From Psammoneis japonica (lineage: Eukaryota), in NCBI GenBank assembly GCA_008632985.1, contig QPGO01000020.1, positions 682,001-746,000 on the forward strand: DNA of 64,000 nt. Direction: 5' to 3'. The notes beneath the pieces are model-generated. The model saw only the letters and a program-made list of their open reading frames with translations. It was not told the origin of the DNA and searched no databases. Positions 420 to 35,268 of this stretch are shown here, piece after piece (positions within the stretch are counted from its first letter, which is position 1; every line of letters begins with the position of its first letter). The position numbers were made by a program, and so were the translations under genes.

Positions 420-1440
420 GTTGCGGTGGCAACGGGGAGTGCGCCTTGAGCCAAGCTCTTGGACTTGGCTTTCCGTGAGATTCTGGAGAAGCAGCGCTTT
501 GAAACTGAGGTCAACTTGAATCTCATAGCCGGTATCGTGGGGAAAGTTGACAAGGAAACCATGCCCTAATTTCAAGGCGGCCATGTACTATTGCAGTTGT
601 CCCACGTGATCTTGGATAGCCCATGGTAAACTGCCTTGAATTCAGCTACCATGCACCGATGTTGTCGTATCACCAGGTGGTTGCTCAGTGGAATCAGTCC
701 GCTTTTGGCCTCAGCCGACCAAGATCCCCATGGGATTCGTGGCCATTCCGTATTAGAGAATCTTTGACTGTTTGGATCTCGAGAATATTCTTGCTGATTG
801 GTATACACGCACATTGGAACGAATGATCTTGCTCCCGTCAAGCCAATACTCGATCCTCACGGTCCGTGCAGAGATTCCACGCTCTTTGCTATTTCTTTTT
901 TACGTGGAGCCATTTGTATGTTCCCCTCTTGCCAAAGTTCCTGAGTCCCATGTTAGACGCCCCCGTGCCATACTTGGTCGGAGTTGTTCGTGACAATTGG
1001 AGATGGGCAGAAAAATACGTCAATGTAGAAACCGTTCTGATGGCTTGGATAGAAATTTGGTCACCCTTGGAGAAGAAACCGAACCGCTCCCGCCTCCTCG
1101 CAGTAGGAAATACTCAAAGCTTACAGCATCCCTTGAACAAGAGACTGGAGATATCTACTGGAAAACACGAGCAATCTGGGAGGAGCATCGAAGATTTGTT
1201 CACAAGAGAGCGGATTCAAAGGCTTGGGAAAAAGCTCGACCTGAGGGAGACAAACGATGGAATGAGAAATTGCATAAATATGACGAGGCGACAAGTGTTG
1301 GTTATTCACCAGATTCACTGAATCTCATCGATGATCCTCAGAACGAGAATCATTAAAGTCAGTGGGATCGAGCACAGGAAACGTTTCTGCGCTTTTTCGT
1401 TTCTACTCTAAAAGACTACAGTAAGTTCTTGGTGATGTGG
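420..1440 (+). pseudogene. DENN-domain (Rab GEF) gene remnant, multiple frameshifts
   Basis: DENN core motifs are spread over different frames: LDLENIL..W...LERMILL.SSQYSILT (772-), WSHLYVPLLP...LDAPVPYLVG (866-), LDRNLV (~1045), and dDENN-like AQETFLRFFVSTLKDYSKFL (~1372-1431). Ends are approximate. Confidence 0.75.
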
Positions 1441-1546
1441 AGGACGACATCCCAAAGAGTGTTCATGACCAGTGACATTCTCGTCAAACATATGAATGCA
1501 TGCTTGTAACAAGAGATGTATGAATTCCTAATAAACGAACGCCACT

Positions 1547-3925
1547 CTACCACAGGTTAGTGTCCGGGACAACCTGGTCAAACCAGTGTCGCTGACGTTT
1601 CTCGGGACGTTCCGTTTTCTGTTCAATGTGAAGTACTTTCTGAAGCCTTGCCCTCTCTTCCTGGAGCTCTTTTGTTTTCCTCTTCATTTCTCGATTGGAG
1701 ATTTCTTTGGTCTTCGTCAACATAACAACACATCGCCCATCATCAAATTCATATGGCTCGAATTCCACACTGAAATGGTACAATCGAATCCGATCCTTCA
1801 GATTACCTCCAAAGTGAAGCTGACCCCATACGCGTGCATCTTTAGCATCTTTAAAGCCACGGATGCATGTACATTCTTCTGGTCCGTGGAGAAACTTTAA
1901 CACTTCGCCAGAATGTTCTTCGTACTTTGGAAATGTTGCTCGACGCTGATGCCACGAGAACGCTGGGCCTCCAGCATCGAGCACTTGGCAAACCTGCTTG
2001 AGCCTTTCCGTGCACAGGCGCGTCATGGCGGAGCAGTCCTCTCCCTGCCACAGCAACGACTCCACAATTTTGCTCAACAGGTCTGGATCAGCATACCGTA
2101 TTACCGCATCTGCTGCCTTTGGGAACAACTCCCGGTCTCCTGCGGCTAGTTCAATAAATTGAACAGCCGCATCTTTGTCTTTCATGACCTTCTCGACCGA
2201 CTCCATGGAACTTGACAGATACGTAGTAGAGAAGAGTTGCTTTCGGTCTTTGCCGTCGCGAGACTTTGAATCCACCTTGGACCATTCGATACGACCGCAG
2301 TCGAGAACACTAGTTTTGATCAACTCAGTTATGGCACTATCGACCTCCTCGGAACACAATAAAAAAGCAGCTTTGAATACAGAATCGATGACTTCCTTGT
2401 GCTTCAACCGACATGTGCGGGAAATGAGCTTAACGGTTCTTGCAACAAGTGGAGCCGTCTCGACCCCGAGTGAAGCGAATATAGTTATAGTCTCGGCAGC
2501 AGAATGGGTCCACCCTTCTTTCGCTTTCTCGTTGAATGCTCTAGTTCTTTCGGCAAGGTCTAGAACTATGTGGCCTTGCTCCATCAGATTTTGTTGCTTG
2601 CCTACCTTGAGTGCCCTCAAGGCCAGTCGAAAAGACACGCTGCTCAGTACCTTGACGTCGTTTGCACGAGGCCAAAACACTACCATGCTGCGATAATATA
2701 TGGCTGCATTCCCTGAGTATTGCGACAGAGTTGAACCTGAGTGATGCCTCTCGGTCTTATCTCTGCAATCAACCCAGAATGCCGCGTGATCAATGTCGGT
2801 TTTCCCCGTTACCTGCAAGACAGTTCTATTAAGCCAATCCAGCCCCAGAAGATCCGTTTCCACTCTTTCACCGCATGCGCTCAACCACAATTTAGTTCCG
2901 AAGCGACTTTGCTTTCCGTCAAAAAGGAATTCGTGTTTGAACATCAGCATCAACGCGACGCTGAACAATGGTTCTCCAGAGGAGTCGGTTGTGTCTTTCA
3001 AAAGATGAACTGTTTCGTTATCTTCCTTGGAGAGATTATGAAACGAAAGACTTTCTTCGGTGTAGTGGCCACTGAGAAGACAGGCTTGCGCATAGAGATC
3101 AGAAGGGCACACATTCTCCCACGCTTCGCCAATCTCACGAAGTGGAAGCTCGCACACCTCGCACGTGTTATGGGCCATCCATTTATCAACAAGAAAGTCT
3201 GAACCGGAAGATTCAGATTTAGTAGCGACAATTTGATACATGAGGCACAATCGCCTTCCCCATACTATTGGTAGCAATTCAAGACGAGCGTACAAATTGT
3301 AAAAGACACCACAAAAGAACGTTTCGTCGCTTTCCACCGACATGTCAATTTCAATCGACTGATTCAAAGGAATCGTTGGAAAGTCATACGTGAAGGTCAT
3401 GCAGCCCCCATGAAAGCTCGACGGCAACTGAATCAACATTGTACCGATAACGGGAGAATCTCTATCCGGCTGTTCCCATGGTCTTGCACAGCCTCCCACT
3501 TCAAACAATAGAAGCTTGTCCAACACGGGTCTGATTCCCCAACCGCTGATGGCATCTTCGTCAAGGCCCATTCTACCCAACGACTTCTGGAAAAGATGGT
3601 CCAGAACGGCTTCCCATTTGCGGCATGCTTGTATGGTGAAATGTGATGACGGAACTTCCCAACAGCACGAGTCTCTTTCGAGAGGCTCGACCACTTTTTT
3701 CATAGCGTTCGCCTGTTCTTCACATAAAGGAAGGGCTAGTCTACCCACACCATTAATCGTTATAGAAGGTTTCATTGGCGGCATGTGGGGAACGGGGTCT
3801 GACACTGCGCACTTTCCGTGAAAGCACAGTTCGTCGAGAAAGCTTTCGTCATCCTTTCTGTTGATCAGAACGTCTCGTAATCTGTTTCGCCATTGAAGAT
3901 ATTGCTCACTCTTGTCAGTTATCAT
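1547..3925 (-). CDS. 792-aa protein with N-terminal 2OG-Fe(II) oxygenase-like domain
   Basis: Long intact ORF with LPLCEEQA, LDKLLLFEVGG, GTMLIQLPSSFHGG and PIVWGRRLCLMY, matching the pattern of a eukaryotic 2OG-Fe(II) oxygenase-like family. Metal-binding His residues appear absent. Confidence 0.7.
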   Translation of the reverse strand: MITDKSEQYLQWRNRLRDVLINRKDDESFLDELCFHGKCAVSDPVPHMPPMKPSITINGVGRLALPLCEEQANAMKKVVEPLERDSCCWEVPSSHFTIQACRKWEAVLDHLFQKSLGRMGLDEDAISGWGIRPVLDKLLLFEVGGCARPWEQPDRDSPVIGTMLIQLPSSFHGGCMTFTYDFPTIPLNQSIEIDMSVESDETFFCGVFYNLYARLELLPIVWGRRLCLMYQIVATKSESSGSDFLVDKWMAHNTCEVCELPLREIGEAWENVCPSDLYAQACLLSGHYTEESLSFHNLSKEDNETVHLLKDTTDSSGEPLFSVALMLMFKHEFLFDGKQSRFGTKLWLSACGERVETDLLGLDWLNRTVLQVTGKTDIDHAAFWVDCRDKTERHHSGSTLSQYSGNAAIYYRSMVVFWPRANDVKVLSSVSFRLALRALKVGKQQNLMEQGHIVLDLAERTRAFNEKAKEGWTHSAAETITIFASLGVETAPLVARTVKLISRTCRLKHKEVIDSVFKAAFLLCSEEVDSAITELIKTSVLDCGRIEWSKVDSKSRDGKDRKQLFSTTYLSSSMESVEKVMKDKDAAVQFIELAAGDRELFPKAADAVIRYADPDLLSKIVESLLWQGEDCSAMTRLCTERLKQVCQVLDAGGPAFSWHQRRATFPKYEEHSGEVLKFLHGPEECTCIRGFKDAKDARVWGQLHFGGNLKDRIRLYHFSVEFEPYEFDDGRCVVMLTKTKEISNREMKRKTKELQEERARLQKVLHIEQKTERPEKRQRHWFDQVVPDTNLW

Positions 3926-4141
3926 GGTCTATCTATGACCTAGAGTTGTTGCTCTTTCGGGGTGTTTGGAAACGCAGTGGCATTTCGTCGTTTCATTTTT
4001 TTGCTTCAAGCGCAATCTGAACCTCGACGTCAACGCGATAGAGACGAAAGATCGCAACGTTGAAGTTCAAAATTCAGGTCTTACGTAGCCCTATCCCGTA
4101 GAAATGTACGGGAAGCACGTTTGGCGCGAAACGCACAAATA

Positions 4142-7100
4142 ACCTCCGCGACCACTGTTTCGAGTCATGCTCCCCTGGACTTTTGGCGAGTTCTCTCTCG
4201 TTGCGTGAACACAGTGGTTGACAGGAAAACAAGAGTCTGGCTTGAAGCCATTCCCAAGGGAGTGGAGCCCAAGCAAGTTGATTTGCAGAACCTTCTCTGT
4301 GTGCTGGCAATGGTCCTCACCTTTCTCTGGAAATTGCTGGCAAACGCTCTCGTGGGGAAGCAGAAGAAATGATGAGCAGGCGAGCATTGGTCGCCAAACT
4401 GTCTCAGGTTGCTCAGCCAACAGACAAGAGGTGCTGGCTTTTCCCCCACAAAGGAAGAGCCTTTGAGTGGCTGTCTCTCTCTCTCAGCTTGTGTCTGTTT
4501 TGATGTGACCCTGAGCTTCTTCTTCTTTGTGGCTGAGCAGCAGCGGCACTGGCTGCGTTCAGCTGTGACATTGGGGTGTGGAAAAGTGTCTCTCTCAAGT
4601 GAAGATGATTTTTCTGATGCCAAGAGGGCAACTCAAGTTGGGCAAAAACAGTGAGTGGGAAACACTGCAAAACTTTGGGGTTTTCCTGCTTTGTCGGGTG
4701 CAGTGCAGTTGTCACAAAAGAGCACACAGAGTGTGCGCTGTTTTGAAATTTTGGTTTTTGTCAATTGTCAATGCAAGGGGGAGCAAAGCTTTGTCCCATT
4801 GGCACAGTTTCCAGAACCCAGGGTCCAAGAAATGACAACAATGGAGCTGGAGAGGACTCAAAATCAAGCCTCGAGATGAGGACAATGCCTGGACCTGGGC
4901 CCAACTTGGCTGAGACTTTTGCAAGCAATGAGCCCATGAGGCGCTCCAAAAAGACTCAGTTTTTCATGCAACAAGAGGCAAGGCCATCAGCTGGTGACAG
5001 GCAGCAGGCCTCCATGAGCCAGTCTTGGCATTGACAAGTTGTCACGTGTTTCCACATTTTTGCCAGCAGCACTCATTTTGAACAGGACACTGCTGCAAGG
5101 TGGCAATGAACAAGTCTTGTTCATTGTCTTGTGGCCCAACAAACTCTTGCTTCACCAGCCCATCTGCTGCCTCTTGTTTCCAATGACAGCACTTTTTCAG
5201 TCAGTGCATGAGCGTTGGTGGTCAATTTGTGCCCTGCTCTTCCTCATGTTGAAACTTTTCTGGACTGCCTGTTTTGCCTTTGCTGCCAGATCCAATCCCA
5301 AGAAGAAGGCCCGATTGCAGTGTTGAGTGCTTTGCTTTTGAAATCTTGGTTTGCTGGCCCTGTTTTTGTTGCTGCCAGCTGTGTCCGGTTGGCACCACAA
5401 CCTTGTGTTGGCGTCAATCTTGACTGATTGTCGTGCATCCCTGCCACATCACACACAACATGATGCTCTGGGAGTGTGGGTTGGCTTGTTGCCAGAGTTC
5501 TTGTGGGGTGGAAGCAGTGCACAGAACTTTAAATGCAGAATTTGAGCTTTGTTTTCCAGTCAGTGCAAAGCTGCTGGGCTGCACTCATGTGTTCTCCCGG
5601 ACAGCCCAAATGTTGTTGGCTGCTTTCTTTGCTGGAAAAGAGACAATTCCATGCACTGGCACCAAACCGTCAACCAAGGGTGTCCTCCACAGCAGCTGTG
5701 ACACAGTGGCCAGCAAGGAACCCTGTTGCTGCAACCCAGTCATCTGCATCAAACTCAGCCATCGCTGGAGCCGCCAACTGCCTGACCAACATCAACACAG
5801 TTTTGCCTCTGAGATGTGTCACAAAGACAGAATGTCAGCAAACACACAGAGCCAATTCACTGACTGACAATGCACTCTTGGCATGCTGACATCATTGCTG
5901 CTCTTGTTGTCATCATTTGCTTCAAAAAGGCTGCCAGAGTTTCTGCCAGCTGCATCAGAAAAAGACTCAACTTGTCAGTTTGTGGCTCTTCTTCTGAGTT
6001 GCTGCCCAAATGCAGTCATCTTCAGGATTGTCAGTTGCTGGTGCTTCTGAGTTGCCCCCAAAGTTCTTTTCCAATTTGCTGGTGTCACACTGATCATGTG
6101 AAGTTCTTTTTTTTTTTGGCTGGGTCACAAGCAGAGAGTTGCACCACCAGCTGCAGAGCTGTTGCCATGACTGCCAAGTTTTCAGTGCAAAAGGGGCTGC
6201 CCCAGACAACAGCCTGTCTGATGACTCCAATCAAAAGGTGCACCTCTTTTGCGACAAGGCACACAACACTTTTAAATGTTTTGTGAGTTGTTTCCAGGGC
6301 ACCAGGTGAATTGTTGGAGCACTCTCCACCAAAGTTTTGGGGTGGCTGCAGAGCGCCACTCTGTTCTCTAAAACAATCTCTCTCAAAACTTTGAGCTTTG
6401 ATGTTGAGTCAGAATTGCCATCACTGCCTGCTGGCATGGTGGCCATTGATGTCACCAGATGGAACTTCAGTGCATTGCCTTCTCTGAGTTTGCTGCCATC
6501 ATGAGCCTTGCACATGATGCCCCCCACCATGAGAAAGGCAGAGTTGTTGTCACAACCTCACATCACAGCATTGTGGCCACACTCATCATGAGTGCGTTTT
6601 TGGAGCTTGTGTCTCAGGCAGAAACTGCTGACCAGGCCAAGATGCTGTGCACAATTCCAAGCTTTTGTCTCCAGCACAAACTCTCTGCTTCCTTGAGAGC
6701 TCCTCTCCCAAGAAACAGTTGAGCCGGTGCACTCAGCAGCCCACCCTTTCTCAATGAGCAAATGTCACAGCAATGGCGAGCATGTCAGATGACTTGTGCT
6801 GGTTTGTCCTCAATGCCACACATGCCACTGCAGAGTTGGCTGAAGTTTCTTTTAACAACAAGGAAGCTCTCATTTGAGCCTCAGAGTTGCTTGTTTTCTT
6901 AAAATTGCCTGGCATGACTGAGCCAATCAATCAGCAGTTCATTGTCAGAAGGTTTGAAGCATGGCTGGGTTGCCACAAACATTCTCCACAATCAATCTCC
7001 ATCATCCAACAGCTGGGGAGGCCTGAAGCTTGAGAGCACTCATTGTTGTCACAAGAGACTGGATGGAGTCAGATGATGGTTTGAAGCCCTGAGACTTGCA

Positions 7101-9605
7101 CGCCTCCACAAATGCCGCAGTGTCTCAATCGCTGTTGCTCTTGCCCACTGAAAACAGCAAACAAGCCCCCAATCACAAGCCCTCAAGATGATCTTTTCCA
7201 GCTGCTGCTGTGGTGCCTTGAGTCACAAATCCTCAACATGGTTGCCACTGGCTGCTGGCATCAGCTTTCAGATGCTCGGACAGTTTGTTGCACTCACAGC
7301 TGCTGTTGTCCTCTTCAAATTTCTGGGGGCTTGGGTGGCAACATGGAGAGATAAAAATGTCATCCCTGCACCAGTCTCCAGATCACTGCAGTCAGAATCA
7401 AGACATCTGCAGGGCTTCCATTTGGCTCAACCAGCAAGGCACCACTTCAAGAGTCTTGGGAATTTCACCAGGAGCTCTCATCTGCCAAAGAGACATGTTT
7501 CTTGATTTGCCTCTCATTGCAGATTTGATTGCCATTCGGAGTTGTTGGCAAGTGTTCATTGATGACAACTTGTGTCGACAAAACCTCAAAAAAGATGCTT
7601 TTTCAACTGTTGTGTTCTGCAGCAAATTTTGATCAAGACAGATGATCCCACCAAGTTGGAACAAGAAAGATCTTTTGGTCCTTGCACCTTGCATTGTCAC
7701 ACAGATTCTTGTGAGTGGAAATGTTGCAGTGCAAAGAGCGCCTCATGTGTTTGAAAGAATTGGCATTTGACGCATTTTGCTGCATCAACTTTGGCACGAT
7801 TAAATTGATTGCGATTCAAAGCATTTGCATGAATTGCAGAAGGGAAGAGTCGAGCAAACTTCTGTGTTGTAATTGCATCAGCAGCTGCAAGATTTGGGAG
7901 ATTCAAATGACCAGGATCATTGTTGACACCTCTAAGAAATTCTGTGACAGAAACCCAAACACTGTGGCTGCAGTCAATTGCAGCTTTTCCTGTGATTTTA
8001 GAAAGCATTCGTGGACAACTTGTCAAGACCACTCAACAGGCTCCTGGTTTTTGTGACAGCAGATGGGCTTGAATCTGTTCCCATGTGTTTGTTGAAGAAA
8101 AGTTGTCAATGACCACATGCCACACTGCCACACATTCAGTGCATGCTGTGACGGGACTTGGCATGATGGCTGCTGATGGCATCAATGACATTTCTGGTCA
8201 CACAGTCAGACAGTGACTGCTCTGATCTGATCAACCACACACAGCCCTGGACTGCAACATTCAACGTTCACATTTTCTTGAAGGTCACCTGTTGCCTGCA
8301 AGCAATCCAGTGGCATGGGTCTTTGTTCACACAGGCTGATGCAAACAGGAGCAGCAACAACATGCTTGTTGTGCGGCGGCACAACAATGGCGATGCTTTG
8401 TCATCCAAGAGTGAGCATCTGGTGGCCAAAGACACAAAGAAAACAGCATCGCTGCGCTGAAACAACTTGTTCATTGATCAAAAACCAAGATTGCATGCCA
8501 CCGTGGCACCATTGTCTGTCCATTCAGTGAGAACAGAAGAAGATGCAAAACCAAGTGAAGCAACAGAGATGAAAGTGGCAGAAGCAGAGGAAAGTGACTC
8601 GCACTCCAAAGGGTTGTTCTCAGGCTCCAGCCAAACAACAAAATGTGTGGGGGAGATGTGGAAATTTTTTAATGAGGGAATGAGGATCAGACAGGAATGA
8701 ACTCTTGTGCTTGCATCTTTTGGGATTGTCCCTGGTTGAGTGGTCCAGTTGGCAGTCTGCTTTTTTTGCAGATGACAATGCTTTCTGTGGTGGCAATGAA
8801 TGTGCCCTCCCTGATCTGTCACCACGGCATGGCTGACATTGCTGAGAGACAACACCACTGACAAATCAGTTGTTTGACAAGATGTTGAAGCCACAAGTCA
8901 ATCTTTGTCACAAGGACCACTTCCTTGGCTTCTCAGATCATTGTGCAAGGCAGCCGTGCACTTCTCAGGAGACCAAGAGACCTTGTGAACTGCTGTGACA
9001 TTTTGTCTGACAACAGAGGGTGCCATGTCATGGCTGTCACATGAACAATGTGGAGGTGACCAAAGCCACTTGCACACACAACATGTTCTGCGCTCATTCT
9101 TTGATGCAAACCAGCATCTGTCGGGAGACCAGCTGGGACAGAAGTCACCTCAGTTGGAGTGGCACAAACGCCATTCTGGTCAGAAGAAGCCTTGAGCTCT
9201 CTCGTGGCTTGCCAGGACCAGAAATTGACAGCAACAATGACATCAGCTTGCCAACCACAGAATGGCAGTTTGTGCCCGACAGTGTCCTGAGCAGGCAGCG
9301 TTGGCATGCACAACAAAAAATGGATGCACTGCATGAACAAGAAGACTGACAAAAACCAGCAAAGCACAGAAAAACAGGTCAGACATCATGTGCAAACAAG
9401 AATGACAGTGAAAATCGAGTCAACCAATGCACTGTGCTGCTTTGGCAAAAGAAAGCGAGTTGTCCAATGTGACAGGTTTGCCAGGTTGAAGTGTGACCTT
9501 GGCAGAGCTTTCGCTGCTTTTGGAGAATGACATTTGCTTTTTCACCCCAGCTTTGTGTTCTCTTCACATGTTCATTTGTTTCTGCTTTTTGTCATGGTTG
9601 CCCAC
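4142..9605. other. TpA-erased, CpG-poor decayed repeat block 1
   Basis: About 10 TA dinucleotides found by eye in 5.4 kb, with a strong CA/TG excess and no coherent ORF. TA returns abruptly at ~9609. Confidence 0.9.
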
Positions 9606-9709
9606 CTGTACATTGAAGGGTTTCCGCTAGTTGACCGTAGCACCATCACTCTTGTTACTACAGTAGGTGTTATATCATCTAAGAACCGCTGTCAAAACCG
9701 GCCTTCTTC

Positions 9710-11047
9710 TTACGTTTTGACGTATTTGGGGCACATTGTCTTGTGCTGCTTCTTCCAGTCCTTTCGTTGACAATCCGTGCTACAGTACCATCTAATCTTA
9801 CATTTGGAACATCGCATGTTGGCAGGCTTGAAGCATATCGCACATGCGTGGGGCTTTTCGTCATCACCAAAAGTGGAACAGCGCTGCAGCAAACTCCAAA
9901 AGTGCACCTCCTGTACAGACGTATATGGAAACTCGGTAAACGCAGCATCGTCGTAGGACGAGTTGGCGATGGTATTGCTGCTCATGTAGCAAACCATCCT
10001 GGATGAATCATGGTCCTTCATGCCGGGAGGGAGCTTGAAGTCTGCAAGCCCTGTTCCTGGTATGTTGGCAACGTTGGTTGTAACTTCCTTGTACTCTCCA
10101 TCCTGGAGTCTGACGACTACGTATCCCTTTTGCATTAGCTGAAATAGAATGGATCCATCATCGTTGGGCTTGGGTCCATCTCGAGACCGCAAGCTACGCA
10201 ACCAGTCCAAAATCCCCGCCGTTCTTTCCCAACACTTCATGGCAGATCGCACGTACGAAGTGGCTTCATCAATGCTTCCACGAGCTTCCGTCTCGGGAGG
10301 AGGTCCAAGATCAACATCCGCAAGTAGCAGGAGCGGCACCATGTTGTTAAGCATGAGAGCCTTGCAGAGCGTTTGCTTCAGTTGCTTCGCTTTGCCCACA
10401 CCGAGCTTGAATTTGAGGAAATCAATAATGACGTAGCCGTAGGCAAAGTAGCATTCTTGTGTTTGACGTCCCTCAGAATGCTTTTCAGCAATTTTTTCAG
10501 CCTCTTTGTATTCTCCAGCAGTCAGTAGCACCTCAAAGAGGAGCACACGAACACCCTGGTTGTCGCTTGGGCAAACTTTGAGAAGATGACGAAACTGTTC
10601 CACGGCAGCTTGTGTTTTGCCCTGTGCTTCCAGGGCCATGCCCAAACCGTGACGTGATCGAAGGTGGGGTCGATTTACAACTACACCCCAGGGAATGTCT
10701 TCCTCGTCTCGCAGCGTGGGCCACAAAAGAAGACTGCAGTCTAGCGCATATCGATAGGCTTGCTCGGACTTTTCCAAAGCGCTCCACTCTCGTCTGTAAA
10801 TATCTCCAATGCAGTTGTAAGCGTCGACTGAAAAAGGAAAGATTCGAAGTGCCTCTTGACAGAGTCGAAACTTTTCCAATGGATCATCCTTGACTTCCCA
10901 AGCATCGTACACCAGTTGTTGGGCCGCTTCGTCTTCGGCGTAGCTTCGGTGAGGAGACAAAAAGTCGGGCGGTCTCTCTCGGAAAGACCGCAGCACTGCT
11001 TCGGGCGGTGGGGTTGGAACTGGAGGAGGCGCTGTATCTGATGCCAT
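9710..11047 (-). CDS. TPR-like repeat protein with C-terminal MYND zinc finger (445 aa)
   Basis: TPR-like helices (HGLGMALEAQGKTQAAVEQFRHLLKVCPSDNQGVR) and MYND CAIC...CSKCKIRWYCSTDCQRKDWKKQHKTMC. Confidence 0.85.
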   Translation of the reverse strand: MASDTAPPPVPTPPPEAVLRSFRERPPDFLSPHRSYAEDEAAQQLVYDAWEVKDDPLEKFRLCQEALRIFPFSVDAYNCIGDIYRREWSALEKSEQAYRYALDCSLLLWPTLRDEEDIPWGVVVNRPHLRSRHGLGMALEAQGKTQAAVEQFRHLLKVCPSDNQGVRVLLFEVLLTAGEYKEAEKIAEKHSEGRQTQECYFAYGYVIIDFLKFKLGVGKAKQLKQTLCKALMLNNMVPLLLLADVDLGPPPETEARGSIDEATSYVRSAMKCWERTAGILDWLRSLRSRDGPKPNDDGSILFQLMQKGYVVVRLQDGEYKEVTTNVANIPGTGLADFKLPPGMKDHDSSRMVCYMSSNTIANSSYDDAAFTEFPYTSVQEVHFWSLLQRCSTFGDDEKPHACAICFKPANMRCSKCKIRWYCSTDCQRKDWKKQHKTMCPKYVKT

Positions 11048-11501
11048 TGCGTTGTTGATATCTTACAGAGGTGCAATAGTTCCGCCTGTTGCGTGGACGG
11101 GGCTCTTGTCGTTTTCGTTAGGAACTTTTACTTCACTCTCTAGCTAGCTAGTCTCTAGCTCTACTCTCTAGCTAGAGTAGTAGCAAGTAGCAGGTATTCG
11201 TCGCAGCACCTCTGTCAACAAGAACAATAAGAAGCAAAACTGTATCATCCGTGCAAAAAAGATACATATCCGGGTTACCAAAAGATCCTAGTACGTGACT
11301 ATGTGCGGTGTGTGCGGCGGGATGGTGCGGTAGGTGCTGACGCTTTTTTTTTTTGCTTTGACGAAAAGCATGTTGTTATGGTTATGTTGACGTTGCTGCC
11401 TTGAGAGAATTTGCTGTTTGGTAGAAGGGACAGAATCACAGCCATACTTCATTGCAAAGGCCCTGACCTATACTCTTTACCGGTAGAACAACAGCATCGC
11501 C

Positions 11502-12521
11502 ATGTCGAATGCAAAAACAAGTATTTCGTTGGATCTTCCCTCAAGAACAAGCACATCTTTTTGCTGCACGTGTCGAAAAAGCAGCAACCAAACACCCACA
11601 GGTCGAGCACTCCAACGGTGTTCGCGGTGCAAAATTACGCGATATTGCTCAAGAGATTGTCAAGTAAAGCATCTCAGTGCACACAAGCAAGCTTGTAAGT
11701 TGATTGCAAAGCTTAACGAGCAAAACGAGGAAGAGAATGCACATAAGAACCACATGCTACTAGCGCAAGCTACCTTCATGATGGCATACGAATCATGCGA
11801 TTTCCCTCAGCGTGGGGCTTTCATGTTTGAGATTGCATACGAGCGGTACTTGGAAGTGTGGAAGCGATCACTAGCACAAAGTGATCAAGAATACCACGCC
11901 TCGATCCATGAGCAAGAGCAAGACATGCATGTCATGCTGATTTTATTGCTCATTGCGTTGGAGCTCCACGAATTAGCCTTTTCCTTGCTTTGCTTGGCGG
12001 CATCACCAGAATACCCAATACTCCGAAACACTATTTTGACAGATGAGAGCAAGGTTGTAATTCCTCGCGTTTCTTACTTTGGCACTTTGACTGATGCGAT
12101 AATGGAAAATTTCAAGGACCATCCCACGCTCTTGATTCTAATGCTTGTTCTCTTCTTACGCTTGATGGTCCATCAAAAGCGTGACGAGCAACGATGGAGT
12201 GCCTTTCGAAGCACGCGGCGCTTTGGACAAGATCTCTTGACCAATGGAACGGCAGTCGACTTGATGCATGATTTTCTTTTCGGTAGTAGGGCAACATCCT
12301 TGGACGATGGTTTTGTACAAAACAACATTATCAGCGTCATCAAGGAGTACCATTTCGATGTATACACTCTTCTTCAAAACGATGGCTTGGCAAGTAAGGC
12401 GATTGGTGCAGAGTTGTTTTCGACCGAGGATGAATTGCAAATGTTTCATTTCTTGCTCTTGCAAGATTTAGTCTACATGACGCCGGGCGTTGCAGACGAA
12501 CTTGAAAACGTATTGGAATAG
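11502..12521 (+). CDS. N-terminal MYND zinc finger protein (339 aa)
   Basis: CCTC...CSRCKITRYCSRDCQVKHLSAHKQAC MYND motif in an intact ATG-to-stop ORF, divergent from the other MYND gene. Confidence 0.85.
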   Translation: MSNAKTSISLDLPSRTSTSFCCTCRKSSNQTPTGRALQRCSRCKITRYCSRDCQVKHLSAHKQACKLIAKLNEQNEEENAHKNHMLLAQATFMMAYESCDFPQRGAFMFEIAYERYLEVWKRSLAQSDQEYHASIHEQEQDMHVMLILLLIALELHELAFSLLCLAASPEYPILRNTILTDESKVVIPRVSYFGTLTDAIMENFKDHPTLLILMLVLFLRLMVHQKRDEQRWSAFRSTRRFGQDLLTNGTAVDLMHDFLFGSRATSLDDGFVQNNIISVIKEYHFDVYTLLQNDGLASKAIGAELFSTEDELQMFHFLLLQDLVYMTPGVADELENVLE

Positions 12522-15214
12522 AACAAGTATGCGAATCTTCCCAACCCCGTCCCTCTTCCTGTAATGCACTCAATCGTAGATTTGCTTTGTTGTTTGAAGT
12601 ATTGGATATGAAACACTTAAGGACGCAGTGCCTGGCGTTCAAGACTTAACGTCCAATGACCTTTTCTTGATTTTGGGGCTGGTACACTCAAGAGTAATCA
12701 TGTTTTAGGACAACTATCAGACCGCTCCGTCCTTTGGCGGAAGCCCAACATAGAAGGATGCTTGAGGTGACACCACGACCGAAGAATGGACTGGATGATA
12801 AAAGATTGAGTGGGCTCAAAATGTGGAAACGAAGGTACCTGCATGCCGGAGGGTACCAGGAGAGATGGTGGAATCAGTGCGACATGTCCGTGGTGATAAT
12901 CAGCACAATGACATCGAGGTGTCGCCTCGAGATTCAAAGTCGATCGGAGGGTAATGTAAAAGAGAGATTCTACTAGAAAGTCATGAGTCTGAAATTCTCT
13001 TTCAACCTGGAACGGTGTTCATGATGACGGCTGTCATTAGAAAGAATGAAAACAAGTCTCATTTGTTTCAATGTTCGAGCTTCATCAAGTTTTGACATGG
13101 GGGCGACATGTTGTTAGAAAGCAGCTGCAGCACGACGAATGCCCCTGACGCTGAAGCTGATACAGGAATCTTCCAAAGCTAGTGCATCCGACACAAGGTT
13201 CCACGCATGAATGGAGGCACCGAGCAGACTTGTTCCACAGGCCAAATGCAAGTGCAGAAAGGCTTTTCTGTGGGAGCACACTATGATCTCTAAGCCGGAC
13301 TAGCTTGGATTGAGTGATGCCATTGCAAGGGAACCCGCAGTCTGTGCTGGCAGTTCACTTGGCTGCACTGAGGAAAACTGTCAACCAGGTGCATGATGCC
13401 AGTTGGACAGAAAAGGAAGAGGCAAAACCAAAGTTGACTTGAATGATTGTCAAGACGGTTGTGGTGGGACTGCCAAAACCAAAGTTCACTCGAACAATTG
13501 TCAAGCCAGCTTCGGTGGGACAAAACGAAGGACACCTGTCATCTTTCCAAAATGCCTCAGGATTCTTTCGATGCCATCACTCAAAGGTGATGCCAACCTC
13601 CTCTGGCAGGCAGCCGATGGGCTGCAGAGAACTCAAGGCACCTGCAGTGTAATTTCAAATTTGAAAAGTGGTTTCGAACATTCAGTTTTGCACAAAATCA
13701 TCATTTTTTGGTGATTGGACAGTTTGACAAGTTGGTTGTGGTGCAACACCCTTGTGCATTTCTGTGACAAATCAGCAGCCACAACCCTTGCTTGCAATGC
13801 CAAAATCTCAGTGCATCAAAAACCAAAAGGCTGCACAATTCATGATGCTTTCACCACAATCAATCACATCCATGATGCACAGACAAACAATGAGACACAA
13901 TCGCTCTGCCAGCAAAGTTCCAATGGAAGTCATGGACTGAGCTTGAATGGCATGGAAGACTTCCAAGGGGAGGAAAAAAAGCCGGCCATTGACCAAAGCA
14001 GAGCTCAAATGCAGCGCGCAGCTTTCAAGAATTGGAAGCCTTCAGAAACGTCTCCAATGGCAGCTGCTCGTTCAGGTGACTGCTGTTCCAAACAAGCGTG
14101 AAACCTCCAATGTGCATTTGAGACCGTCGCGTTTGAAGGTTTGGCTGGAGCTTCCTGGGTGGTTGCCAATTTGCAGGGGTTTGGACAAATCAAGGCTGCT
14201 CCAGTGCCGGAATGACCATTCCCAATGCAATCACTTCGCAAGTGTCACGCAACACATTGACAGCCAGTCTTGAATGAATGTCTCTTTGTCCATGAGTGCT
14301 CGGGTGACAAGAGAAAATGCCCAAATGACAGGGAGTGCAGTTTTTGAAAGTGCCGTCATGCATCCTGCTGCTGTGCTGGTGCTGTTTCCAATCTTGAGGA
14401 GAGTGGCAGCCATTGCAGCATGGGAGTCTTTGGATGGACGGTTCACAGACACCTTTTCTGGCATGAAGAGAGAGTCCTCAAACCAAGCGCTGCATCCTCG
14501 GAAACAATGTCTTGTCATTCATGTGATGATGATGAAGTGAGTGTTGGCCTCACTTGACATCAGCTCCAGTCCTGAGTGGGGAAGTCAGAGAGCAAACTGT
14601 GCTGCACTGCTTCATCCGTGCTGTCATTCTGTCCCGCCTTTTTCAACATTGACAATTGACCAAATTTGTTTCTGCTTTGCTCTGCAACCACAGTTCCACA
14701 TGAGCCATCTGCTGTTGCATCTGCCAGCGCAACAACAGAGATTCCTTCTGATGAAAGCAATGTGTTTGGCCTGGATGAGGATCACGGCCAAGTTGTGACT
14801 GTCCCTGCAGCGGTGTCAACGGCGCAAGAATGCCTCATTGCGGATGACCGTGCCTCCAAGATGTTGTCAGCATTGGTGTCTTCATGGCAAGAGATCCCTT
14901 TTGACATGGGCAATGAGAGCTTTCCAGACCAGCACAATGTGGAGGGGCTGTTGTCAGTTGATGTGGAACACACAGAAGAAGCAGAGCACATTCAAGCACC
15001 TGTTTCACTTGTTGCAGACAGCAGTGCTTCCATTGTTCCAAGGCAGTCTGCTTGACTCAGAGCAGTGTTGGGAAGCATGTGTGTTCTGTCATCCACTGAT
15101 GGGTGAACTGTTCGAAGGTTGGCTGGAATCTTGAACCATCAAGCTCATGCAGTGAGATGGCTCAAGTGCCTGCGGGAACAAAGCAGCACCTGGGAGGAGA
15201 GAAGAACAGGAGTT

Positions 15215-15241
15215 GGAGAGAGAGAGAGAGAGAGAGAGAGA
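15215..15241. repeat. (GA)n microsatellite
   Basis: Direct reading of the GA run. Confidence 0.9.
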
Positions 15242-16225
15242 AATGGGGAGTGGAGCACGCAGAAAAGAGAAAGTGTTGATTGGCAGAGTCCCAAAGAGGT
15301 TGAGAGAGGAAGAAAATGAATTCAGGGAAATGGCGAGGCAAGAAGAAGATTGAGTTTGGTGAGGACTGCAGGCAGAACACTCACACATCCTTTGTTTGCT
15401 TCAGCCATTCCAAACAGACAAATTGAGTCTGACAGCAAGTTTTCTTCTTGCCACATTCTGGCTCCATGAGCATGAACAATCAAGGTGCTGTTGCTTTTGT
15501 GTGCAACGGTCAGCAAGTTTTGGGTGAGCAGCAACATTCTGTCAAGTGAGGAATCTTCGTGGCACCTGCAGTTTGGCACATGTCATGCACAGCATGCACC
15601 TCTGCATTCAACATTTCATTGACCACTCAGTGGTTGGTGATTGCAGACTTTTTTGTGTTGGTCAGTCGGTCGGGCAGTCGGTCCATCCACATTTGAAAGT
15701 TTGTCCCTTGGATTTTGGAATGGCATGGGTTGTTTAGTGCAAATGAATTGTTTGGATTCGCAGGATGACCGCTGAGGACATTGGAGGTCATGGGGACATC
15801 CTAAAATGTTGACAAATTCCCTGTGACAGGTGTGTGGAATGGTTTTTTAGGAGAGCTCGAAAGTGTTGTAAAATTGGCATTGCCGGTGTGGCATCTTGAA
15901 AAATGCACTCAGTTGTTTGTGAAGATGGTTTGTCATGAATTCTGCACAAAACAGTCACATTGGGAAAAACACGTTGAACAATGAGCGAGTTTGTGCAATG
16001 TGCTGTCATGGCAACAAATTGGAAAACAGAGTGTCCGTGCACCCAGCTGCAGCCCCAAAAATGGCACGAGACATCAAACACAACAATCATCCATGTCACT
16101 GGTGCGGTGGCCATGCCACTCTGCCGGCCCCGACGGTGGGGCCCTGAGCACATGCAGGCAACACAGCATGCAACGGCACACACCCACAAAGAAAGACAAG
16201 TGGTCAATGCTCCCCGCAGGCCTGG

Positions 16226-17060
16226 TTGCTCTTCTGTGCAAGCTCCCGCTGGCAACCTTCCGCGTGTGTTTCTACACGAGTTCTCATGCTGATGTCACCA
16301 TTCTCAGACGGCATTGATTTGGCTCCTACAAGCCCATTCTGTCCATGTTTGCCAATGGCACATTTTCATTGCAGCATGATGAGCAAAGTTCATCAGTGGA
16401 AAACGACGAGTGTCGCAGCCTGTTGGTTTGCACGCTGATTGTCATTTCTTGTAATTTCCAGTGCAAATTCCACACGGATCCGCAGATGCTGCTGACAATC
16501 TGCACGCCACTTCTCCGGCCTGCTTTTGTCCTTGCCAATTGGTCTTCAATGCTGCTTCCTTTTCTCACCATGCAGTCAAGTCCTTCACTCTTTGTGGTGC
16601 AAGTGCTGCTTCTGTTGCGGCCCTTTTCAGCAAGAATGTCAGTCATCCTTCAGAGTCATTTGACTGTCATCGATTTGCTGCTCCCATCGGTTTTTCTGTG
16701 CAAGATCTGGCATCATTGTCTCTGCATGTTGCCACTGACTGTCTGTGCTTCACTTCTCTGGACTGCTTTTGTCTTTGCCAATTGGTCTTCAACCCCATTT
16801 CTTTTGTCTGCCATGCAATCAAGTGCTTCACTTTTTGTGGTGAATGTGCTGTGCTTCTGTTGCGGCCCTGTTGAGCAAGAATGTGAGTCATCCCATGGCA
16901 CCATTTGCTTGTCTTCGGTTTGCTGCTCCCATCGGCTTTTCTGTGCAAGACCCAGCATTGTTTCTACATGCCATGAATGTTTTCTCCAACAACCTGCTTG
17001 TCTCACCTTCAAGGCTCCTTTTGTGGACCATGTTAAAAACCCATCCGAGTGCAATTGTCC
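16226..17060. repeat. Dispersed repeat copy 1 with internal ~240-bp tandem duplication
   Basis: Alignable by eye with 28425-29205; tgccaattggtcttcaa recurs at ~16533 and ~16776. Confidence 0.85.
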
Positions 17061-18404
17061 ATTGCAGCAGTTGTGGTGTGCCTTCTGTGGCTGTTGTCAA
17101 CAAGCACACAACAAATCCCTCATGTGGGTCATTCCTTTTCAGTCATCTTGGTGGGGTGTCACCTTCTGGCAATGCCCACTCCGTCCAATCCCATGAAAGC
17201 TCCTGCTGCACTCAACTGTGTGCTGGGGGTGTGGGTCAGCCGGTGCTGGCAAAGGAGTGACAGCACTTTAAACTCAGATCTGTTTTTTTTTACATTCAAC
17301 ATTTAGAACTCAGCTTTGAGGGTTTGAAAACTCAACAACAGACTGCCTTTGATGTTCCATGTTGGACAAAAAAGCACCAACGACAGTGGACTGTGTGGCC
17401 CTTGGAGTGCAAACAGATCCAGTCTTGCTTCTGCAATGAAGCACTTGATGATTTTAATGCCTTTGCCGATCGCATGTTTTCTGTTGGGTTTTCACAAAAA
17501 TGGCATGGTTGTGTTGGGAACATTTGGCAGGCATGCAGAGAGTTTTCAAGCCACACATTCAATTGTGAGTGCTGGAAACTCATTCCAGCAAGCATCGCTC
17601 CATGCAATTCTTGCAGTTCCATCTTGTCATGGCGTGACAATGCTCAAAATTTGCACATTCTTGTCAGCACCCAACGGACCCCTTGTTTTTCCAATGGATT
17701 GCTTGATGATTAAAAGGAATCTTTGTGTCGAATGTTTTCTGTTGGGGTTGAAAGCAATGTGCTGTCTTTGTCAGGATTTCAGGCATGCAAAAAGAGTTTT
17801 GAAGCCACTGGTTCAAATGCGTTCTGAAAGCTCGTGCCTTTGTGCTTGCAACGTGCAGCAGGCTTTGTTCGTTCAGTTTCAGCCCATCAAGCATTTTAAC
17901 TTTTTCTCTGGCAGGGCCCTGATTATCTTGCATTGCAGTTGCTGTGCGAACCAGTGCTTGCACCGCAACCAACGTCTTTTCAGCGTGAGATCCCCAATTG
18001 TCATGGATTTTGCAAAGGCGCCCCGATTGATTGTTCCCTCAGATCACATCTTGCCAAGGTTCGTACTGCATGGCGGTGGGCAAGCTAGGATCTTAACGCA
18101 TTGTACCTCGGTATGCACTTGACTGGTGGGGCTGCATTTGAAATGGACAATAGGAACAAGGTCCTAGTCTATCACTTTGCCTTATCGCACAGGTGAAAGG
18201 TAGCACCAGAAACAATGTTAGTTCATGCTCCAAACAGATTGAAGATTAGGATCAAAGTACATATCGCAAAGATAACATACTACGAAAAATAAAAAATGCT
18301 CCTGTTGACCAGCCTAAATAAAGCTCTATAGAGAGGGCATGTGCACACAAAGTCTATGGGACATAAAATGCCGCTTCGTCGTTGCTTCTAGATATTAGAA
18401 AGAC

Positions 18405-19222
18405 TTAAGCGTCGGGGCCGAATGGGACAGATCCGGGGATGGAAGCGGCGGCCCAAAGTCCCGCAAAGCCAATCATGGCAAGACGACCATTCTTGATCTC
18501 AACATCGCGGCCACGGGCAAGGTCTTCTTCGCTCCTCTTTCTAATGCCTCCCAAGTAAAGCCCTGGAACCATGTTCTACTCATTTCCAAGAAAGAAAATA
18601 AGTTGAAAGTGAGTCGTCAGTCGAGAGAAGAATAGAAGTCATCACGGATCAAGATGTTTGCAAAGCAACGTACCTTTCCGGGGGTGCCTCCCTTGAGGTA
18701 GTGAGTACCTCTCCTCGAGAAGAAAAGTTCATCGTGGAATTCAATAAGTCCAGCAAAGAGAAGCATTTGGGCCTTACCCCATCCCGGGACAGCATCCCAG
18801 GCTTCAAGTCCTTTGGATGGAATAGAGCTGAACTCAAGGCCATGGGCAAGCTCACCGGGGAATCGGAGTCCGGCTCCAACTGCCCACCAACCGACAAAGG
18901 CAGCCATGGCAACACGGCCGTGCTTGATTTCGGAATGACGGAACCACGCAATGGTTTCGTCAGAGCCCAATTCTGAAAGACCGAGAGGATCCCAAATTTT
19001 TCCAAATTCGATCGTGTTGGGAGTAGAAAGGATTTCTTCGCGGCTCAAGCATTTCGAAGTCGGAGGTGCTGGGGCAGGAGCGGGGGCTTCTTCAGCCGGT
19101 TCTTCAGCTGCTTCCTCGTCAGCCATAAAGAGAGCCATGGGCCTCGAGGTCACTGCCGGTTGAGCAGTGAAAGCGGTGGCAGTGCCAACCATGGCAAGGA
19201 CAAAAGCGGTAGCGAGCTTCAT
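18405..19222 (-). CDS. Fucoxanthin-chlorophyll a/c light-harvesting protein (Lhc/FCP, possibly Lhcq-type); exons 19222-18674 and 18575-18405
   Basis: Signal peptide plus ATAF plastid motif; WDPLGL; FRHSEIKHGRVAM. A GT-AG intron (18673-18576) joins in frame to the third helix EIKNGRLAMIG. Confidence 0.95.
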
Positions 19223-25300: not shown

Positions 25301-25959
25301 TCTTGTGTGAGGTCTGATGACTCAACGTGACAGTCTGTGAATTGGTGGTTGGGAGACATGTGCAACTTTGGCACTCACCTCTTCTCACATGTTTTTGCAG
25401 ACCATGACATGACAAGTGGGATGCTGTCCAGTTGCCACGAGTGCTTCAAACAAAGCACAACAATCCAAGAAGTCCAAGGCTTTGTGCAAGACACACAACA
25501 TCACATGCTTTGACCCGCTGGAACAGCATCTGAATTTTCTCTCTGGTGTGGCCAAGTTGCACCATTTGGAGCTTGTTCTTGTCTCTGCCATGGCGTGTGT
25601 GATGCAGCAAGTGCATGGAAAAGCAAACAGCGAATTTGGTTTTGGGGGGCTTTCTGGTCACACACCAGTGTCTTGAAATCAAGCACAGTTCTCTTGCCAC
25701 CAGCAACAAAGAAATGAAGTTGTTTGAGCAAATGCCTCCATCAATGTGGCAAAAGAATCTGTTGCCAGTTGTTTGCTTGATTGACAAGTTGCTTCCCACA
25801 ACAAATGTGCGCAACATGTTTCCGTGCTTGACAAGAGCATGACTTGTCAGTGATTGAAATTTTCACATGTGTGCTGATTGCATCTACAGATCTTCAACAC
25901 ACACAATTGTTGGCTGTGTTTCTTGGCAGTCATTGAGTCTCAAGCAAATCTTTTTTGCT

Positions 25960-27500: not shown

Positions 27501-27621
27501 TGCTGTGCCTGTCCTCATTTCATGCTGGATGCTGCACAACTCATCCTCCAATCTGACACTCACCAACAACAATGGTGCGCCCCTGTCACAATTCACTTTG
27601 TTGTCCTGGCTGCTGGATGTG

Positions 27622-27645
27622 CAACAACAACAACAACAACAACAA

Positions 27646-27696
<51 letters not shown>
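27622..27696. repeat. Compound microsatellite (CAA)n(CAG)n(CAA)n
   Basis: Direct reading. Confidence 0.95.
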
Positions 27697-27699
<3 letters not shown>

Positions 27700-28424
27700 T
27701 GCTCTCCAAAAACATTTTCAAAAGCATCTTCAGCATTTTTCTTTCTCCATTTTGGCCTGAACCCTGATGACAACTTTGGGAAGCACACCCCCAGTGCTGC
27801 AGGAAGAGAAGTGCTGGGAACAGCAGGAAGAGCAGCTCAGATTTAAACTTGCAAAGGCATGGTTTTTGCATCTCATGAAGTGAGCAATGGCACCACTGCT
27901 TGGAAAGCCAGCCACTGTTGCTGCAAATGAAGAGACAATGGCCAGAGTGTGTCAGCCATGCATCCTCAGTTCCAGGGTTCATGGGGAGTCTTCCTCTGCT
28001 CTGGACAGAACAAGACTTGTCAGACAGAATTGGAAGGATTGCATCTCCAATTGGACATTCTGGTGAAGCAAAATCAATGGGAATCCATTTGTGAAGAAAT
28101 TTTTGAGAGGGCACCCTTCTTTGGAGAGCAAACATCATTGAACACTTTTCTCTGGGCAAACTTGTTGATTGACGGTCCTTGTTGTTGTGCAAGTGATGCA
28201 CAGTTCAAAGACAAGGAAGAGCAGAAAGTGGAGCAACCACCTGCACTGGCTCCATTGGCAGACATGCTGAGTCACAAGTCTGGGTTGGATCCAACAACAC
28301 GCAACTGGAGAGTTGAGTGAGACACAAAAGCCTTTGCAGTCCAAGTTGCGGAGGGTGGGCCAACTGTGGGATCAGAAGCGTGCCAGTCTTGTGGCCTCCA
28401 TTTGAACTCTCACTGCCTGCCCCA

Positions 28425-35132: not shown

Positions 35133-35268
35133 GCGAGGTCTAATGCGAGGTCTAATGTTTTTTCGCGAGGTCGAATGCTTTTTTCGCGAGGTCTGTGTGC
35201 TACTTTCGCGAGGTCTAATGCATTTTTCGCGAGGTCCAACGGTTTTTTCAAAAGACCCCAGACCTCGC
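35133..35268. repeat. Array of six direct GCGAGGTC motifs plus one inverted copy
   Basis: Copies at 35133, 35145, 35165, 35186, 35208 and 35229; inverted GACCTCGC at 35261. Confidence 0.9.

Follow-up and report, generated by a model that had tools for sequence, protein, structure and literature searches.

Survival of TpA dinucleotides in TA-depleted blocks of a diatom-like alga depends on the flanking T/A tract

We analyzed a 64-kb window (the whole stretch of DNA considered here, positions 682,001 to 746,000 of Psammoneis japonica contig QPGO01000020.1) of nuclear eukaryotic DNA from a diatom-like alga, with a GC content of about 47%. The window contains blocks in which nearly all TA dinucleotides (TpA steps) have been turned into TG or CA, and the TAs that remain follow a context rule. 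Their survival rises from 2.4% to about 100% with growing length of the surrounding T/A tract, and a TA preceded by a purine and followed by a pyrimidine (R-TA-Y) never survives (0 of about 300 expected). T/A tracts confer the protection, a TAA or TTA by itself does not, and R-TA-Y sites are the preferred targets. An earlier note on this DNA, made from the sequence alone, had taken TAs beside A/T tracts for poor substrates, in agreement with this gradient.

The blocks were called by a two-state segmentation of the pyrimidine-purine (Y-R) steps. Five blocks depleted of both TA and CG were found at positions 4206-9608, 13306-17819, 22686-31254, 35351-39553, and 61286-64000, together 25.4 of the 64 kb or about 40% of the window. 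As described here, block 1 (4141-9608) holds 11 TAs, with 11 CG and 223 TG+CA per kb, and contains neither an open frame nor a Pfam domain. Block 2 (13306-18056) holds 17 TAs up to position 18060 and 20 CG per kb and includes a high-copy repeat at about 15.3-17.3 kb. Block 3 (22779-31254) has 1.5 TA, 10 CG, and 226 TG+CA per kb, block 4 (35276-39876) 3.0 TA and 20 CG per kb, and block 5 (61330-64000), which extends past the end of the window, 1.9 TA and 12 CG per kb. Overall, the blocks contain 2.3 TA and 13.1 CG per kb compared to 37.3 and 54.3 in the background, and 223 TG+CA per kb compared to 150. The total of Y-R steps and the base composition are the same inside and outside (GC 0.48 vs. 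0.47), and AA is not depleted (81.7 per kb in the blocks, 76.9 per kb in the background). In 1-kb windows of the five blocks, rho of TA was 0.0-0.14 (overall 0.04) and rho of TG/CA 1.5-2.2. The loss of TA and CG, the matching gain of TG+CA, and the constant Y-R sum are as expected if transitions turned TA and CG into TG or CA; together with the paralogues and the reverse-transcriptase ORF described below, we take both the depletion and this direction as demonstrated. GC-biased gene conversion was rejected, since the GC content is 0.48 vs. 0.47, TA alone is affected, and that process is not dinucleotide-specific.

The TA and CG borders of the blocks agree within tens to about 300 bp, and the blocks closely adjoin genes; at the right end of block 1, ordinary TA density is back at position 9609, about 100 bp from the end of an open reading frame (ORF) at 9710. 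TGA stops occur in all six frames of the blocks. A Pfam search with 24 six-frame translations of blocks 1-4, read through with stops as X, gave nothing above the cut-offs; the sub-threshold matches were DUF5560 (18.8 bits, cut-off 25), zf-CCCH (20.4, cut-off 20.5), zf_CCCH_4 (17.1, cut-off 29), and TFIIA (17.6, cut-off 36.2). When the window was compared with itself in the purine/pyrimidine alphabet, no terminal direct or inverted repeats were found for any block, and the matches were limited to a repeat family shared by blocks 2 and 3, a repeat internal to block 5, and a duplication in tandem at 43.1-43.6 kb.

Block 1 lies between ordinary TAs at 4140 and 9609, and all 11 surviving TAs between 4141 and 9608 have a TAA or TTA context. 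Seven of them had been named in the earlier note and were found as described: TTTAAA at 5530 and 6273, CTAAAA at 6369, TTTAAC at 6853, ATAAAA at 7352, GTAAT at 7870, and TTTAG at 7999. The sites absent from its list are CTTAAA at 6900, ATTAAA at 7801, CTAAG at 7933, and TTTAAT at 8670. Six of the 11 are TTAA, each extended to TTTAA or TTAAA. The statement that most TAs of block 2 share this context also holds, with 14 of 17 up to position 18060 and the exceptions being CTAC at 16273, 16327, and 16965. A count of all NTAN tetramers, as the note had proposed, gave TTA or TAA for 47 of 59 TAs in the five blocks, while elsewhere in the window the share was 538 of 1434 (Fisher p = 1.8e-10), and TTAA for 23 of 59 compared to 55 of 1434. 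As a null model for newly arisen TAs, we used the contexts of the blocks' own 5673 TG/CA steps. This null predicts 48% TTA/TAA (2720 of 5673; 47 of 59 observed, p = 5.6e-7), 6.8% TTAA (23 of 59 observed, p = 1.9e-12), and 22% R-TA-Y (0 of 59 observed, p = 4e-7). The survivors thus differ both from the background NTAN contexts and from the flanks of the blocks' TG/CA steps; their bias is real and reflects neither the ancestral NTAN distribution nor unbiased new mutation. Homopolymer slippage, the other source of TAs that the note had considered, changes the length of a run and cannot make a T-A junction.

To express survival as a rate, the expected number of ancestral TAs was calculated by scaling the count of block Y-R steps with given flanks by the fraction that reads TA among background steps with those flanks. 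This method is safe for Y-TA-R flanks, as the process itself cannot change those. For symmetrised tetramers, survival was 0.67 for TTAA, 0.20 for CTAA/TTAG, 0.06 for CTAG, 0.05 for GTAA/TTAC, 0.04 for CTAC/GTAG, 0.03 for ATAA/TTAT, and 0.02 for ATAG/CTAT; for ATAC/GTAT, ATAT, and GTAC it was 0 of about 282 expected. A half-site model, in which the A of each strand survives independently according to its 3' neighbour, described the 16 cells with four parameters (fitted survival 0.77 for A, 0.27 for G, 0.08 for C, and 0.04 for T). Its deviance was 11.7, compared to 82.7 for a two-class TAA/TTA rule and 130 for uniform survival, so that the two-class rule fails as a model. The implied relative rates are 3.2 for TAT, 2.6 for TAC, 1.3 for TAG, and 0.26 for TAA.

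Tract length, defined as the T run 5' of the TA plus the A run 3' of it with the TA itself excluded, is a stronger variable than the adjacent base. Without flanking runs, 11 TAs were observed and 664 expected (survival about 2%), with one flanking T or A 9 and 236 (about 4%), with TTAA only 0 and 14.7, and with TTTA or TAAA only 4 and 76 (about 5%). Up to a flank-run sum of 2, 24 TAs therefore stand against 990 expected. At a sum of 3, 15 of 39 remained (38%), and at a sum of 4 or more all remained (21 observed, 11.7 expected). The enrichment behind the phrase "TAA/TTA protected" in the earlier note holds, but the phrase is too coarse, as a single flanking T or A and a bare TTAA give little or no survival. 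Every one of the 23 TTAA survivors is part of TTTAA or TTAAA, compared to 30 of 55 in the background (p = 2.8e-5). One-sided T runs (TTTTA-B) already reach 36% survival; the A of the top strand is followed there by a non-A and is still protected. Protection thus crosses the strands, which suggests a property of the duplex tract more than a single-strand reading. The opposite pole, missed by the earlier note, is that among TAs without a flanking T or A none of the 12 survivors is R-TA-Y, with about 5.6 expected (p = 5e-4). The note had also seen an enzymatic or structural specificity fingerprint in the survivors. The tract-graded survival fits such a fingerprint, whose cause may be either enzymatic or structural.

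The direction of change can be read from two members of a repeat family, both on the plus strand, one in block 2 (16226-17059, with internal tandem units of about 240 bp) and its paralogue in block 3 (28425-29205). They are 80.4% identical in bases and 96.6% identical in the purine/pyrimidine alphabet, and they differ by 127 transitions and 27 transversions. At 176 Y-R steps, 36 TG<->CA flips, 19 pairs of CG with TG/CA, and 5 pairs of TA with TG/CA were counted; 72 of the transitions lie within the flips and 24 more in the pairs involving CG or TA. The 36 flips indicate that each copy resolved ancestral TA or CG independently after the duplication, on either strand, and the tandem units inside block 2 show the same flip pattern. 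The site TTAAAA at 17034/29180 is common to both paralogues, which makes it an ancestral TA. At alignment column 872, one paralogue reads TTTAAG and the other TTCAAG, and either direction is possible. The degenerate Y-R pattern of the repeat core was found at two sites in the window, at none in metagenome_contigs, and at none in viral_contigs.

A sixth block on the plus strand (46862-49635) has lost TA only: it contains 1.8 TA but 62 CG per kb at 56% GC. It overlaps an open ORF of 803 amino acids (46684-49095, plus strand) whose relatives are reverse transcriptases (RTs; PF00078, 158 matches), the named ones being from Cyclotella atomus and Fragilaria crotonensis. We aligned the ORF with 27 homologues and regarded a tyrosine as conserved if present in at least 70% of them. 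None of the nine conserved tyrosines is kept; they are replaced by six Cys, one His, one Arg, and one Phe. The tyrosine of the YxDD motif is now encoded by TGC at 47950-47952, so that YADD reads CADD. The other residue classes are kept at 50-100%, save for one Met column that is now Val. The eight Leu>Pro changes all have the codon CCA (from CTA), and for Val>Ala it is GCA (from GTA). Of the changes at conserved columns (n = 74), 22 correspond to a single TA>TG/CA step and 8 to a single CG>TG/CA step. The ORF is still open because TA>TG/CA cannot make an in-frame stop. Judged from the alignment, the loss of the catalytic and the other tyrosines is damage and not adaptation. The ORF also lacks about 200 aligned RT-domain columns that are present in its relatives. 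Selection at the RNA level against UpA and CpG was rejected as a cause of the depletion, as the effect is too large and catalytic RT residues are destroyed.

In each of the six TA-depleted blocks the residual TA content lies within 1.5-3.6 per kb, whereas CG ranges from 10 to 62 per kb. This steadiness despite varying CG argues that TA conversion is saturated and that the remainder is best read as non-substrate. The absence of TA next to untouched CpG in the RT block shows that TA loss is separable from and faster than CpG decay, and this block looks like a younger or an unmethylated target of the TA process. Runs tests on the series of TG and CA steps gave z values between -2.2 and 1.4 for the six blocks, and TG and CA are about equally frequent in blocks 1-3, so that the hits appear independent, site by site, and roughly strand-symmetric. 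Processive editing of one strand was rejected, since no run structure was present in any of the six blocks. In block 4, TG exceeds CA (p = 0.006), and CA exceeds TG at 61330-64000 (367 vs. 251) and at 46862-49635 (299 vs. 194; p about 1e-6). The CA excess in block 5 and in the RT block reflects either a strand bias of the conversion or ancestral composition.

We consider it likely that the survivors reflect the context-dependent substrate quality of a TpA-directed mutator. Expressed genes alternate with non-coding, partly repetitive blocks of 3-9 kb, which the mutator probably recognizes as silent, repeat-derived chromatin. There, a transition process (A:T>G:C) has converted nearly every TpA to TpG or CpA, with each strand hit independently, and, at a slower pace, most CpG has gone the same way. 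R-TA-Y is always converted and a TA with one flanking T or A nearly always, whereas T(n)A(m) tracts protect according to their length, with immunity from about TTTAAA, TTTTAA, or TTAAAA on. Since protection by a T run on one side extends to the A of the opposite strand, the mutator presumably reads duplex DNA or some feature that depends on the duplex. The agent might be an enzyme that deaminates adenine after T, resembling TadA/ADAT in its preference for U-A.

The earlier note had suggested polymerase eta and TadA, including TadA-derived adenine base editors, for comparison. Polymerase eta leaves a WA>WG signature in which TA and AA are both mutated. This does not match our blocks, where AA is not depleted and TAA is the least mutable trinucleotide. 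ADAR and APOBEC share with the blocks context-biased, deaminase-driven clusters of transitions in mobile DNA. APOBEC changes C and not A, in strand-coordinated clusters, whereas no run structure is seen here. ADAR edits double-stranded RNA and prefers a G after the edited A; in the blocks, G after A is 4-5 times worse than T or C. It was rejected as the agent since TAY is preferred over TAG here and strand-coordinated clusters are lacking, although it favours U before the edited A (quoted in 10.64898/2026.01.13.699255). A TadA/ADAT-type adenine deaminase agrees in part: TadA and ADAT2 act on an A preceded by T or U with G as product, only TA and not AA is depleted here, and TAC and TAT are the best substrates. 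According to the data available from one report, wild-type TadA depends on UACG and the sites of TadA-8e over-represent UA (PMC12296453). The blocks differ in that T after the A is as good as C and in the decisive role of tract length.

Several observations weigh against the substrate-quality reading or parts of it. The mechanism rests on sequence footprints in one 64-kb window, and the expected counts were derived from the genic background of the same window, from which the true ancestors may differ in NTAN or tract frequencies. A transposon or viral origin of the targets is evident for the RT block only; for parts of blocks 1 and 2 it is suggested by repeat depth. The motif TGTTTCTACA kept its CTAC at three of six homologous positions (16273-16274, 16965, and 28888) despite its susceptible context, whereas the positions 16723, 28470, and 29111 were converted. 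The converted partners read TGTG, from which the ancestor may have been TACG, possibly with methylation of the C next to the A; another possibility is that the family, which is high-copy, is simply young. The TAs in the longest tracts exceed the background prediction (Poisson p = 0.009), which may be due to ancestors richer in tracts or to run-extending substitutions that added TAs. As for the enzyme, wild-type TadA prefers C after the A and T is equally good here, and TadA and ADAT2 read single-stranded loops, whereas immunity in the blocks depends on how long the duplex T(n)A(m) tract is and extends across both strands. A tRNA deaminase that reads loops does not readily account for the decisive role of tract length, and because of this poor fit we hold the assignment to a TadA/ADAT-type enzyme only tentatively, as a serious candidate that is nevertheless somewhat more probably wrong than right.

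The excess in the longest tracts would also be expected if the surviving TAs were new, created by run-extending substitutions (TTTG>TTTA or CAAA>TAAA, e.g., by polymerase dislocation at the ends of runs) while removal was blind to context, and column 872 fits this direction as well as the other. We nevertheless regard this explanation as improbable. Removal elsewhere is near total (the 24 of about 990), so that new tract TAs could persist only if removal in tracts is weak, and a context-dependent mutator would still be required. The TTAAAA at 17034/29180 is ancestral, and creation bias predicts neither the gradient TAA > TAG > TAC/TAT nor the absence of R-TA-Y among the run-free survivors. Run-extending substitutions could contribute extra TAs beside protection.

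Alternatively, TTTAAA-like tracts might be functional sites, such as structural elements of silent chromatin or sites bound by an AT-tract or TATA-type protein, kept by selection or shielded by protein, with a mutator lacking any flank preference. The two-strand, tract-length-dependent protection resembles the footprint of a minor-groove binder, and one tract TA is conserved between the paralogues. However, surviving TTAA number 23 with 34-36 expected, i.e., they are at or below background and not enriched, the graded classes (20% for CTAA/TTAG and 6% for CTAG) fit the multiplicative substrate model with its deviance of 11.7, and the blocks lack open frames and recognisable elements. As shielding by protein is itself a context rule, only the pure-selection form counts as a true rival, and we judge it very unlikely. 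Even less probable is that the composition was inherited, the blocks being foreign DNA from a TA- and CG-avoiding virus or mobile element that never mutated in place. Joint suppression of UpA and CpG is described for RNA viruses, as far as the cited article was available (PMC3829696), and the block borders are sharp, with those for TA and CG nearly at the same place, but a rho of TA of 0.04 is far past viral suppression, the 36 flips need independent conversion after duplication, the YxDD tyrosine and eight other conserved tyrosines of the RT were destroyed, and one block lost TA but kept CG.

The sequence itself was examined with Logan contigs, which are built from the exact 31-letter words of a sequencing run. 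Run X1 contains 97% of the sampled words, at a depth of about 62 alike in genes and single-copy parts of the blocks, and one X1 contig of 3745 nt (1635-5379) spans the border between gene and block 1 without any difference. X1 may be the source sample of the assembly, in which case its support is at read level and not independent. A consensus or base-calling artefact is unlikely, and we give next to no credence to its particular form in which modified bases (5-methylcytosine or a modified T) were mis-called and real TA and CG appear as TG and CA: both lost dinucleotides are classic sites of base modification and the sole DNA run with this stretch may be the assembly sample, but noisy long reads could not yield exact words at the depth seen in genes, and the graded context rule and the random choice of TG or CA in the paralogues would not obviously arise from consensus errors. 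Accurate platforms are not known to substitute bases at modified sites.

The X1 word depth also revealed repeats. It reached 1143-4340 at 15342-17342, about 20-70 times the baseline, and 338 and 568 in the block 1 bins 5337-6003 and 7338-8004. These stretches belong to repeat families of which the blocks contain tens of copies. Most of the variant letters contributed by the remaining copies are transitions, among them a TG>CA pair at 7991-7992. Over much of block 1, the present word depth is that of single-copy sequence.

With the TpA-directed mutator as the preferred reading, the loss of CpG would be ordinary decay of 5-methyl-CpG in methylated repeat blocks. In the diatom Cyclotella cryptica, methylation was reported to occur mainly at CpG, filling blocks of repeats up to 30 kb long that are separated by gene-rich regions without methylation (PMC5124317). 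The block architecture is the same here, and decay of methyl-CpG would give CG>TG/CA in such blocks; the accessible part of that paper is silent on TpA. The RT block lost TA without losing CG, so that the TA loss cannot be put down to CpG decay. Pairs of CG with TG/CA are seen in the paralogues. As an observation in its own right, the surviving CpG of the five blocks show a flank bias that runs counter to the one seen for TA, being richer in G/C flanks: survival was 0.46 for GCGC, 0.31-0.35 for ACGG/CCGT, ACGC/GCGT, and CCGG, and only 0.15-0.18 for TCGA, ACGT, ACGA/TCGT, and CCGA/TCGG. A more far-reaching idea is that a single duplex-reading machinery of silent chromatin erases the self-complementary Y-R steps TpA and (methyl-)CpG alike, either as a deaminase acting on A and C or as a 5-methylpyrimidine oxidase acting on T and 5-methylcytosine with mispairing products. 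We consider this a long shot.

The closest known counterpart is the chlorarachniophyte (rhizarian) Bigelowiella natans. In mutation-accumulation lines of this alga, two integrated viral regions acquired 231 mutations, of which 230 were A>G/T>C, all of them at TpA (10.64898/2026.01.13.699255). For this DNA of nucleocytoplasmic large DNA viruses (NCLDV) and virophages, the preprint by Mettrop et al. gives a TpA mutation rate about 1000 times the normal one and proposes an ADAT2-like A-deaminase (10.64898/2026.01.13.699255). As far as the preprint's main text goes, B. natans and our window share A>G/T>C changes at TpA yielding TpG/CpA in non-host-like regions beside normal genes, a long-term footprint of kilobase clusters poor in TpA and rich in CpA+TpG, and TpA-poor domains of reverse transcriptases (in B. 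natans also of transposases). As to a foreign or mobile character of the targets, one block here is an RT element and parts of blocks 1 and 2 are high-copy, whereas the 24 read-through frames of blocks 1-4 gave no Pfam match above the cut-offs. By the definition of a cluster given there (at least 3 kb, rho of TpA at most 0.43, rho of CpA+TpG at least 1.52), all five blocks qualify; the RT block, with a rho of TG/CA of 1.3-1.6, does so for TpA only. The process is saturated here (rho of TA 0.04, compared to 0.45 in the NCLDV region of B. natans) and covers about 40% of the window, whereas 124 clusters were reported for the 95-Mb B. natans genome. CpG is also lost and a flank and tract rule is readable here, from the footprint only; in B. 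natans the rate was measured de novo. The main text of the preprint mentions neither flank rules nor CpG loss, and its supplementary site table may contain flanks. Apart from this preprint, full-text literature searches turned up no report that describes TpA>TpG/CpA hypermutation or an influence of the flanks on it.

Fungal repeat-induced point mutation (RIP) also comes close in some respects, with near-saturating, dinucleotide-specific transitions in repeats and mobile elements, compositional blocks, and destroyed element genes. In ascomycetes, RIP is described as changing C:G to T:A mostly at CpA, thereby making TpA and removing CpA/TpG (PMC2621366, as far as available). The process in our window is the opposite and concerns a different base, since TpA is removed and CpA/TpG are made. 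RIP acts on duplicates, whereas the present single-copy depth of much of block 1, which need not be that at the time of mutation, gives no evident sign of a dependence on duplication.

Between the blocks, the window contains long open frames with ordinary domains, namely zf-MYND with TPR repeats, GST, CDP-alcohol phosphatidyltransferase, TB2/DP1, and a delta carbonic anhydrase. The latter has 1767 relatives with a best identity of at most 77%, the named ones being from diatoms (Seminavis and a Corethron-like transcriptome) and Pinguiococcus. With diatom names among the carbonic anhydrase and RT homologues, the DNA looks like that of a diatom or other ochrophyte and not of a rhizarian; B. natans itself was rejected as its source, as no protein match is above 77% identity. 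A frame of 793 amino acids on the minus strand (1547-3928) has no Pfam domain and no homologue at E <= 1e-10 among the 8000 best word-sharing candidates, and is an orphan or lineage-specific gene. On the minus strand at 18576-18673, contigs of a second run, X2, pass over a 98-base stretch that ends in CT..AC (GT..AG when read on the minus strand), at a depth of 1561, and those of X1 do not; the skipped sequence is a short spliceosomal intron of an expressed gene adjoining block 2. Run X2 is labelled "DNA?" and behaves like cDNA. Its contigs cover the flanking genes and leave blocks 1 and 2 nearly bare, which we did not take as evidence of silence. The left kilobase of block 4 (35068-36350) is TA-poor and only mildly poor in CG; it contains frames of 177 amino acids on the plus strand, to which the CCCH zinc-finger match of 20.4 bits (cut-off 20.5) belongs, and of 284 amino acids on the minus strand, and may be another recently hit gene or element. 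The tandem duplication at 43056-43606 has a period of about 274 bp and lies in a non-depleted stretch. An assembly gap of 317 N is present at 55085-55401, and the GC content of 0.32 in the surrounding 1 kb is owed only to the Ns.

A TpA mutator was first measured in 2026, in one chlorarachniophyte. The same signature, saturated, in an apparent relative of diatoms raises the possibility of a process that is common in marine algae and shapes large parts of their genomes. The differences from B. natans are the other algal lineage, the saturated footprint, the coupled CpG decay, and the readable specificity fingerprint, as saturation makes non-substrates visible. This fingerprint, in which every R-TA-Y is hit, TAG takes a middle place, T/A tracts are immune at about 5-6 bp, and both strands are protected, argues against an ADAR-like or polymerase-eta-like origin, partly fits an adenine deaminase that reads T-A, and indicates which oligonucleotides serve as substrate and as negative control. 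For annotation, blocks with TGA stops only and without Tyr codons can mislead gene finders and the inference of genetic codes, and alignment in the purine/pyrimidine alphabet recovers repeats which ordinary alignment shows as about 76-80% identical. If the single-machinery idea were true, the blocks would represent a genome-wide "reverse RIP" in which the immunity of T(n)A(m) tracts is the footprint of the enzyme's opening of the DNA, and this would be an ancient eukaryotic genome defence, widespread in algae as distant as Rhizaria and stramenopiles.

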